From assembly GCA_000004985.1 (NCBI GenBank), contig GG739273.1: 2,303 nucleotides of DNA, one strand, 5' to 3'. The position numbers and the translations under genes were made by a program. How positions within the stretch are numbered: position 1 is the first letter of the stretch; each line of letters opens with the position of its first letter. The stretch is from Naegleria gruberi (lineage: Eukaryota). This document shows positions 1 to 2,296 of this stretch, piece by piece. The notes under the pieces are model-generated. The model did not search any database. It was not told the DNA's origin and was given only the letters and a program-made list of their open reading frames with translations.

Positions 1-2
1 TG

Positions 3-170
3 GGAAGTAGTATTCTGAGTAAATATGGATTGAGTGGTGCTTATATCAATTTTAAGGATTGCAAAACAATTGAAACAGTTATGGATGCATACAATTTTGG
101 ATGCTCCCATGGTTTTAATGAAACAATTACCAAATCATGTTCAAATGGAGTTTCTTTCAAGTGTTTCTAA
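3..170 (+). CDS. Possible 3' end of an upstream coding region or exon. Frame 3 is open from the window edge (...SGAYINFKDCKTIETVMDAYNFGCSHGFNETITKSCSNGVSFKCF) and ends at TAA 168-170
   Basis: Frame 3 is uninterrupted from nt 3 to the TAA at 168-170 (55 codons). The stop overlaps an AATAAA hexamer (171-176). The peptide is Cys-containing and not low-complexity. I recognise no domain, and no start codon is visible inside the window. Confidence 0.25.
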   Translation, partial: GSSILSKYGLSGAYINFKDCKTIETVMDAYNFGCSHGFNETITKSCSNGVSFKCF

Positions 171-176
171 ATAAAA
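168..176 (+). promoter_or_regulatory. TAAATAAA: stop codon fused to an AATAAA-like polyadenylation hexamer
   Basis: The literal motif taaataaaaac directly follows the open frame-3 tail. AATAAA is the canonical eukaryotic poly(A) signal, but in AT-rich DNA it also occurs by chance. Confidence 0.2.
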
Positions 177-406
177 ACAAGCGAATTGGTTCCACCAAGA
201 AGGCAAATTCAAACAAATTCTCTATTTACCTTACCTGTTGGACAATGGAATCACCTCAATGTGTTTGATATTTAGATATCAAATAACAATAATCTAATTG
301 ATTTGTGCCTCTTCGCACAATAGTCAAAGATAATCATGTTGTTATTACAACAGTTTCAAATGTAGTATTAAGGCACTGGTTTGGTCCTAATCCAGACGGA
401 TTATGC

Positions 407-812
407 ATGAGGGGTTCATTTAGCACACAATGAAAATTTTGAGGTTTTCCGCACTATTGGTACAAAAAAGAATGGTCTTGCTCCTTCAGTGAACGTAAAC
501 CTTACAGTTTCTAATAGTTTTTCAGTATGGCTCAAGAGTCCTTATGGAGGTATTCCACTTGCTTTCAGTGTCAATGGTAATAACATATCGCGTCTTTGCT
601 TCCAACATTTGGAGACACTTGGTGTTTGTTTTTAGGACAGATGGTACAGATCTCTATTTAGATGGTTCGTTATTCAAGACTAGTTCAACTTCTATTGCTT
701 CAAAGAATTTGAACGATGGCAAGTTGACCATTGGTGGACACAACGCTGGTACTATTATAACACTGGTTATGTTGCCAACGTCATGATTTTCACAAAGGCA
801 CTCTGCCTCTGA
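407..812 (+). pseudogene. Concanavalin-A-like lectin/glucanase-fold (LamG_3 / pentraxin-like jelly-roll) domain gene. It is disrupted by frameshifts, running frame 2/3 -> frame 1 -> frame 3, and has no uninterrupted start-to-stop ORF
   Basis: Frame 3, 411-584: GVHLAHNENFEVFRTIGTKKNGLAPSVNVNLTVSNSFSVWLKSPYGGIPLAFSVNGNN. Frame 1, 586-750: YRVFASNIWRHLVFVFRTDGTDLYLDGSLFKTSSTSIASKNLNDGKLTIGGHNAG. Frame 3, 750-812: YYYNTGYVANVMIFTKALCL* with TGA at 810-812. Joined, these follow the LamG_3/pentraxin pattern in order: f-T-v-s-a-W-v-k, then r-f-s-v-n-g, then W-x-H-v-a-v-t-y-d-g...l-Y-v-n-G, then l-x-i-G, then f-n-G-x-i-D-e-v-r-i-y-n-r-a-L. Frame 3 is closed by TGA at 408-410 and has no Met in 411-576. 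An ATG at 407-409 (frame 2) sits immediately before a GGGG run (411-414). Removing one G gives M-R-V-H-L-A-H-N-E-N-F... and, with the two other indels corrected, a ~135-aa single-domain ORF. There are no in-frame stops within any of the three domain-bearing segments. Confidence 0.6.
544..786 (+). CDS. ORF-track 80-aa ORF. This is the frame-1 middle segment of the frameshifted LamG_3-like gene. Its Met at 544 is probably not a genuine start
   Basis: It contains the WRH...LYLDG...LTIGG core of the domain. Its N-terminal 14 codons (MEVFHLLSVSMVIT) overlap the better-supported frame-3 reading (SPYGGIPLAFSVNG). Its C-terminal 12 codons (TIITLVMLPTS*) overlap the better frame-3 reading (YYNTGYVANVMIFTKAL). 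Confidence 0.4.
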   Translation: MEVFHLLSVSMVITYRVFASNIWRHLVFVFRTDGTDLYLDGSLFKTSSTSIASKNLNDGKLTIGGHNAGTIITLVMLPTS

Positions 813-929
813 GGTTTCTTCCCTCACTCTCAATAACTACTTTTAAAAATCTATGGCGAATCATTTTTCTCCATAAATTATTGAAATCTCAAATTATCTT
901 ATTAACAAAACCAACAAGAATTCATTTTC

Positions 930-1318: not shown

Positions 1319-2296
1319 ATGCTCTCCTCATCATTTAATAACATGGAGCGTATGCTTGATGATAATCATAATAACCTGATACAAACAGGAGATATGATCA
1401 CTATTCATGTGGACAATAACATATCAAAACCAGCAACATCAACAGAAGGACCTTCGGGAAGTTGTGAGTATTTGACTGGTAAATTTTCAAAGAGGGCCAC
1501 TACACCTTCGTACTACCATCTATTGTACAATGATGCTCCAGTCTGTCCACCCGACTTTATTATCAATATTAAATTAATAGATATGAATATGACTATTGTA
1601 TCTATCAAGGTACACAAAGTATTTTTGGCTTTGGAATCATTGTATTTTAGAACTTTGCTCAATTCGGAATTTACAGAGAGTACTAATTCCGTTGTAGAAT
1701 TTGAATTAACTTCTGTAGAAAAGGATATATTCGAGCAAATTATTTTGAGATATATTTATGGTGAGAGAACTTTGGATATTGACAAAGGCTTACCATATGC
1801 CTGTACATTATGTCTTGCTCACTATTTGCAAATTTCTCCTCTGGAATGCCAACTTTTGCAACAAATGACAAAAACATCAAAGTATACCGAACAACATTTA
1901 TTGTATTATTCACAACTTCGTGATCACTCCATGTTGGCTGTTAATTCTTCCTTCCTTTCACAATCACTGACTGCTTTCGGAAAAGACATTTCAAAGAAAC
2001 GTGATGAAGTTATGAATTTACCAGTGGAATTTTTCTTGTGGCTTGTTTCGTTGGACAATCTGAACGTTAGTAATGAGGATGAAGTTTTTGATCTCATTCA
2101 AGAGTACATTATCAGAAATGAAAAGTCCATCAGACAAAATAATCCAGAAGGATTTGATCAAAAACCTGATATTATTGAACAAGTTTGGTCAAATGTGAGA
2201 GTTTGCTTCCTTTCCGAAACCAAATTGTTGAGCTTTATGGATCAACCATCTATTTCTACAGATCTCAAAATATCAATGCGAGAAAGAAGACAGTGA
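1319..2296 (+). CDS. BTB/POZ + BACK domain protein, 325 aa, with no kelch, MATH or other C-terminal domain. Likely a Cullin-3 substrate-adaptor-like protein
   Basis: The ORF is uninterrupted and ends at TGA 2294-2296. The BTB domain spans about aa 79-185 (nt ~1553-1873): KVHKVFLALESLYFRTLLNSEF...VVEFELTSVEKDIFEQIILRYIYGERTLDI...ACTLCLAHYLQISPLECQ. This matches the aHk-vLaa-S-yF / f-x-x-l-L-x-f-i-Y-t-g / L-x-a-A-x-x-l-x-i-x-x-L-x-x-C blocks. The BACK domain spans about aa 195-310 (nt ~1901-2248): LPVEFFLWLVSLDNLNVSNEDEVFDLIQEYIIRNEKSIR...VWSNVRVCFLSETKLLSFM. The N-terminal 78 aa look Ser/Thr/Asn-rich and possibly disordered. Alternative in-frame Met codons occur at codons 9 and 12. Confidence 0.8.
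   Translation: MLSSSFNNMERMLDDNHNNLIQTGDMITIHVDNNISKPATSTEGPSGSCEYLTGKFSKRATTPSYYHLLYNDAPVCPPDFIINIKLIDMNMTIVSIKVHKVFLALESLYFRTLLNSEFTESTNSVVEFELTSVEKDIFEQIILRYIYGERTLDIDKGLPYACTLCLAHYLQISPLECQLLQQMTKTSKYTEQHLLYYSQLRDHSMLAVNSSFLSQSLTAFGKDISKKRDEVMNLPVEFFLWLVSLDNLNVSNEDEVFDLIQEYIIRNEKSIRQNNPEGFDQKPDIIEQVWSNVRVCFLSETKLLSFMDQPSISTDLKISMRERRQ

Follow-up and report, generated by a model that had tools for sequence, protein, structure and literature searches.

A likely non-processed pseudogene of a Naegleria-type Laminin_G_3 gene

Positions ~430 to 846 of a 2,303-nt stretch of DNA (33.7% G+C), the whole of which is referred to below as the window, are very probably what is left of a Naegleria-type gene encoding a secreted protein, now a non-functional pseudogene. 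The parent would have been of the NAEGRDRAFT_75284 type, coding for a hydrophobic leader followed by a Cys-rich region of the EGF type and by Laminin_G_3 at the C-terminus, and the copy would have been disabled by deletions of ~640 nt, 74 nt (net), 1 nt and 2 nt. Only about the last two thirds of the LamG_3 domain are retained, probably fused to the first 11 codons of the gene. Inactivation would be recent relative to the divergence from the N. gruberi gene, and the relic may be a young unitary pseudogene or the decayed partial duplicate of an intact paralogue located elsewhere in the genome. As read from the nucleotide sequence, it would make no LamG protein.

Homology to a domain family and to an intact gene

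Sequence coding for a Laminin_G_3 (ConA-like) domain occupies positions 464 to 846 and is distributed over frames 3, 1, 3 and 1. The initial annotation of this DNA had proposed a lectin fold on the basis of motifs dispersed over the reading frames, and profile searches bore this out. The translation joined in the manner of that annotation matched Pfam Laminin_G_3 (PF13385) with 58.3 bits (E=1.3e-15), a join guided by the intact homologue described below matched it with 59.4 bits (E=6e-16), and the frame-1 piece alone reached 32.0 bits (E=1.6e-7), in comparison to a curated gathering threshold of 27.6 bits. The match of the joined translation covered profile positions 43/52-151 of 151, beginning at approximately 464-467. 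Three-frame translation of positions 1-900 agreed with the placement of SFSVWLK and AFSVNG in frame 3, of WRH...LYLDG...LTIGG in frame 1 and of YNTGYVANVMIFTKAL in frame 3. The successive readings were KKNGLAPSVNVNLTVSNSFSVWLKSPYGGIPLAFSVNGNNI in frame 3, NIWRHLVFVFRTDGTDLYLDGSLFKTSSTSIASKNLNDGKLTIGGHNAGT in frame 1, YYNTGYVANVMIFTKAL in frame 3 and SASEVSSLTLNNYF in frame 1, the last of which (segment D) had been overlooked. The pattern "...raLsa.Ev..L" is the typical end of a Laminin_G_3 domain, which this final frame-1 reading fits, and segment D matches the C-terminus of the intact relative (...PEVSSLTVNNYF). The TGA at 810-812, initially taken for the end of the gene (frame 3, ...KALCL), is an out-of-frame stop; the homologous stop is at 844-846.

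A complete LamG_3 domain in one ORF was not found in the window, the coding sequence being divided into four frame segments and carrying a net 74-nt internal deletion. Unlike members of PF13385, which the conceptual joined translation resembles with a score well over the gathering threshold, the relic has no continuous ORF and has lost the first 40-50 profile positions and ~25 internal residues. By its sequence, the locus is to be regarded as the remnant of a LamG_3 domain rather than as a domain.

When the joined LamG translation served as the query of an exhaustive HMMER search, a single close relative was found, designated P0002 (E=6.9e-54, 75% identity); the matches that followed were giant multi-LamG or multi-domain proteins that were ~30% identical. 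P0002 is a predicted protein of N. gruberi (XP_002669727.1; NAEGRDRAFT_75284; UniRef100_D2W1V6) of 378 aa, composed of a hydrophobic N-terminus (MIQLLRFCALLVVFLLLANITLTL), a coiled region, a Cys-rich EGF-like region and a C-terminal Laminin_G_3 domain. Pfam assigned EGF_2 to residues 139-165 and Laminin_G_3 to residues 231-370 (profile positions 7-151). A second 378-aa protein, P0152, belongs to the same 90%-identity cluster and is encoded by an uninterrupted 1137-nt ORF at positions 337-1473 of L002, an environmental contig that carries a near-identical copy of the gene and was used as the DNA reference for base-level comparison.

The relic and NAEGRDRAFT_75284 displayed 83% amino acid identity over 121-127 alignable codons and 80-81% identity at the DNA level. 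They also have in common a C-terminal series of motifs, namely, SNSFS-WLKSPYGG, WRHLVFVFRTDGTDLY-DGSL, KLTIGGHNAG, ANVMIFTKAL and EVSSLT-NNYF-stop. NAEGRDRAFT_75284 is a single ORF, whereas the relic has lost ~640 nt plus 74 nt and is frameshifted further by two small deletions. With dS ~1 separating the two, the window copy should be considered a paralogue or a gene from another species; sequence divergence of this extent means that it is not the same locus.

The intact gene itself resembles a lineage-restricted orphan. A search of 5.8 billion proteins with P0002 retrieved only its own cluster (N. gruberi and one environmental copy), and neither this search nor the exhaustive HMMER search detected a counterpart in N. 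fowleri. No match was obtained in a word-index search with the joined protein as the query, and two metagenome scans for orthologous loci found none. Exact look-ups of the proteins encoded by three ORFs of the window showed none of them to be on record.

Map of the lesions

Alignment of the window to L002 revealed two blocks of similarity, and a global DNA alignment placed the lesions (Table 1). Each of the four deletions alters the reading frame, and ~60% of the parental coding sequence is missing from the relic.

Table 1. Features of the relic and of the neighboring ORF, in window coordinates
Feature	Position	Strand	Description
Probable leader remnant (parental start codon, first 11 codons)	430..462	+	Frame 1, MKILRFSALLV
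Breakpoint	463..463	+	~641 nt of parental CDS (L002 373-1013) missing
LamG_3 segment A, KKNGLAPSVNVNLTVSNSFSVWLKSPYGGIPLAFSVNGNNI	464..586	+	Frame 3; ungapped to L002 1014-1136, 81% nt identity; P0002 227-267
Deletion junction	587..594	+	8 nt in place of 82 (L002 1137-1218); net -74 nt
LamG_3 segment B, FASNIWRHLVFVFRTDGTDLYLDGSLFKTSSTSIASKNLNDGKLTIGGHNAGT	595..752	+	Frame 1; aligned to L002 1219-1376
LamG_3 segment C, YYNTGYVANVMIFTKAL	753..802	+	Frame 3; aligned to L002 1378-1427
LamG_3 segment D, SASEVSSLTLNNYF, and ancestral stop TAA 844-846	803..846	+	Frame 1; L002 1430-1472
Intact ORF with BTB and BACK domains, 978 nt	1319..2296	+	Pfam BTB E=1.9e-10, BACK E=2.6e-5

The similarity to L002 has an abrupt 5' edge, with 81% DNA identity from 464 on and none 5' of this position. 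The sequence missing at the breakpoint codes for what remains of the leader, for the coiled and EGF-like regions and for about the N-terminal third of LamG_3. Initiation at ATG 407 followed by a disrupted GGGG run (411-414), as initially proposed, has no support, since similarity to the intact gene and Pfam coverage start only at ~464; the frame-3 codons at 411-463 are also unlike the parental residues preceding KKNGLA. Correction of the frame had been expected to yield a complete single-domain ORF of ~135 aa, but the intact relative is a 378-aa protein with an EGF-like region.

Upstream of the edge, MKILRFSALLV matches residues 2-12 of P0002 (IQLLRFCALLV) with E=1.2 over the whole search. The score was reached by 5/2000 shuffles in a restricted, post hoc test and was not significant in the unrestricted search. 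A DNA-level alignment of the leader sets ATG on ATG but is weak, its score being reached by 30/300 shuffles. Apart from this remnant, comparison of window positions 1-463 with residues 1-226 of P0002 gave nothing beyond shuffles. These alignments suggest that the segment at 430-462 probably derives from the parental start and that an internal deletion of ~640 nt probably fused KKNGLA to the beginning of the leader in a different frame. The alternative is a plain 5' truncation at 464, and preference for the internal deletion depends on the post hoc test of the leader remnant. Under an internal deletion or a 5' truncation alike, ~60% of the gene is gone.

The three remaining lesions lie within the domain. 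Replacement at the 587-594 junction removes ~25 codons (FFNVASAKGFSFYDDKFTTPFVTDGT) from the domain core, between the 'WLK' and 'WRH' strands, and shifts the reading from frame 3 to frame 1; alignment to L002 therefore replaces the +1 single-nucleotide shift previously reported at 577-590 by this net 74-nt deletion. The -1 shift reported near 748-757 was found in the global alignment as a 1-nt deletion at 752/753 (L002 base 1377; ACTTAT to ACTAT) that returns the reading to frame 3. These two shifts had been thought to compensate each other, but a further deletion of 2 nt at 802/803 (L002 bases 1428-1429) brings the reading back to frame 1. Comparing the DNA with one intact homologue thus changed the picture from three single-base frameshifts to two large and two small deletions.

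Splicing was also considered. A candidate intron at 577-635 (GTAATA...TTTTTAG) was rejected, since it would excise the conserved WRHLVFVF codons and its phase does not fit. Compared with the intact gene, all four lesions are deletions and none is an insertion, indicating that splicing cannot explain the frame changes.

Restoration of a single frame by programmed ribosomal frameshifting or by insertional RNA editing, which was among the possibilities raised initially, is scarcely credible. The frames used are free of stops within the homologous segments, and an A6 run (CAAAAAAG, 463-470) is present at the first frame change. However, the intact gene shares the Lys-Lys codons of KKNG that form the A6 run at 464-469, and this run does not lie in register for a slippery site; at none of the positions 463, 587-594, 752 and 802 was an X XXY YYZ heptamer found in register. 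Recoding would have to combine four events of three different kinds within 400 nt and could not supply the ~25 and 213 missing codons, leaving the joined product ~240 residues short of the parent. RNA editing is known in Heterolobosea as mitochondrial C-to-U substitution rather than as nuclear indel editing, which counts against the editing variant of this explanation.

The features of the locus are those of a non-processed (duplicated or unitary) eukaryotic pseudogene, namely, recognizable homology, several frame-disrupting deletions and truncation. Homology is documented by the HMMER match to P0002, by the intact ORF on L002 and by the DNA identity to it. Disabling lesions comprise the four frame-changing deletions, and the frame-1 reading from the probable ancestral ATG at 430 meets a stop at 490-492 after 20 codons. 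A processed (retrotransposed) origin was rejected, as the A run behind the stop is limited to 5 nt (845-849) and no flanking direct repeats were found. Loss of introns is uninformative in this respect because L002 carries the parental gene as an uninterrupted ORF.

Substitution pattern and competing explanations

The 121 codons aligned in the parental frame retained 101/121 identical amino acids and contained no stop codon (0/121), in agreement with the initial observation that the conserved segments are stop-free. Differences at the first, second and third codon positions numbered 19, 4 and 46, respectively, and the Nei-Gojobori method gave dN=0.091, dS=0.99 and dN/dS=0.09, a value that spans all of the divergence from the gene of the N. 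gruberi type and not the relic branch alone; the protein searches with the joined translation and with P0002 yielded no close outgroup for a lineage-specific rate. This coding-like pattern is that of a gene whose divergence from the N. gruberi type, judged from the aligned codons, built up almost entirely under protein-coding constraint. Taken alone, a dN/dS of 0.09 resembles that of a functional gene, and loss of function is argued only by the lesions. The relic differs in this respect from non-processed pseudogenes in general, since no relaxation is visible in its substitution pattern, indicating that the relic is young.

If every nonsynonymous difference is counted as having occurred after inactivation, neutral decay since that event has an upper bound of ~0.09 substitutions per site; with an assumed ancestral omega of 0.05, the estimate is ~0.044 neutral substitutions per site. 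In simulations, the probability that 121 codons would stay free of stops at ~0.044-0.09 substitutions per site was 0.19-0.44. Thus, the absence of stops is no argument for function. Four indels in a gene of ~1.1 kb at that divergence would represent an ordinary indel-to-substitution ratio.

Strong purifying selection and the lack of stops in the retained codons could also be expected if the gene were intact in the organism and the disruptions were sequencing or assembly artefacts at this locus. The 1-nt and 2-nt deletions lie in TT and CAC-T-CAC contexts, which are prone to error or slippage, and each of them could be an error; the related contigs in public collections stem from metagenome assemblies of low coverage, such as L001 with a coverage of 1.8. 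Losses of ~640 nt and of 74 nt (net) are not base-calling errors, however, and mending both small indels leaves a sequence that is still frameshifted and ~240 codons short. The adjacent ORF of 978 nt, which is rich in homopolymers, was found open throughout with matches to the BTB and BACK families and contains no indel, versus four lesions within 400 nt in the relic, a contrast that a uniform rate of indel errors, initially called unlikely, cannot explain. We consider the artefact explanation highly improbable. Since single-base repair restores no intact lectin gene, the view of the locus as a small lectin gene that is intact but locally misassembled is untenable. Of the three options offered by the initial annotation, pseudogenization is the one that the evidence supports, its recency being in agreement with the substitution pattern, and neither the assembly-error option nor the frameshifting or editing option was upheld.

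Another possibility is that the broken copy is still used and under selection, either as a truncated LamG-core peptide encoded at 544-786 or as an element 5' of the BTB gene that is transcribed or has a regulatory role. An ATG-initiated frame-1 ORF of 80 aa at 544-786 contains the WRH...LTIGG core and reaches 32 bits alone versus LamG_3, and 473 nt separate the relic from the start of the BTB gene, which follows it on the same strand. Selection on the broken copy, if true, would explain why the coding-like substitutions are undisturbed despite four deletions. However, an 80-aa piece of a ~150-aa beta-sandwich that lacks the N-terminal and C-terminal strands and ~25 internal residues is unlikely to fold, and the protein encoded at 544-786 was not on record in an exact-protein look-up. 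Moreover, descent from a recently functional gene fully explains the conservation. Residual use is, on balance, slightly less probable even than an artefact, and a recently inactivated, non-processed pseudogene is by far the explanation that we favor.

Flanking DNA and significance for Naegleria-like genomes

The BTB/BACK ORF downstream of the pseudogene lies outside the relic and provides context. Over 324 aa, its product shares 66% identity with a protein cluster whose named member is N. fowleri FDP41_004858, a 742-aa protein with BTB and WD40 domains. Together with the match of the relic to P0002, this identity indicates that the window is nuclear DNA from a Naegleria-like heterolobosean eukaryote rather than from a prokaryote or a virus. 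An origin of the window in a giant virus, prompted by the AT-rich DNA and the BTB gene, was rejected, as scans of viral contigs revealed no relatives and the homologues came from Naegleria. An A-rich tract at 1278-1317 (A5, A4, A4, A8, A6), directly 5' of the start codon at 1319, is probably the 5' leader or the promoter of the BTB gene in an AT-rich genome. The ORF ends with ...MRERRQ* at a stop located at 2294-2296, 7 nt before the end of the window, whereas its N. fowleri homologues (a 539-aa fragment and the 742-aa protein) run ~185-385 residues past the aligned RKRQ into WD40 repeats. Possible reasons are an intron of the window gene that starts here (GT at 2293-2294) or a gene that is shorter or truncated.

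On contig L001, which is N. fowleri-like, the call for the BTB-WD40 gene (401-2633) was split into two ORFs (401-2020 and 2136-2633); comparison with the annotated 742-aa N. fowleri protein suggests an intron or a frameshift between them. This split supports the eukaryotic, intron-containing nature of BTB-WD40 loci. The only 400 nt present upstream of the BTB gene on L001 lacked LamG similarity.

At the other end of the window, frame 3 is open for 55 codons from the left edge (3-170, with a TAA at 168-170) and may represent the 3'-terminal part of an unrelated gene located further upstream. Reading through this frame to ~330 gave, by eye, a Cys-rich, LamG-like appearance (GCSHG, SFKCF, LPVGQWNHLNVF). 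The possibility that positions 1-330 contain a second LamG/EGF-like relic, raised by SFKCF, LPVGQWNHLNVF and the Cys spacing, was rejected, as Pfam gave nothing at E<=10 and Smith-Waterman scores versus P0002 were in the range of those of shuffled sequences (30 versus 32±5 and 39 versus 37±5). Rfam, tRNA and repeat scans of the window revealed nothing relevant.

A literature search on Naegleria pseudogenes retrieved nothing specific. This relic is undescribed, and its kind is wholly ordinary. We recommend that the locus be annotated as a pseudogene and neither as a small lectin gene nor as a candidate for recoding. It documents one dated case of a gene decaying through deletions in a genome of the Naegleria type, with little weight outside annotation. 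For the family, it means that a LamG_3 gene known so far only as an orphan of N. gruberi possesses, or once possessed, a relative in another Naegleria-like lineage.
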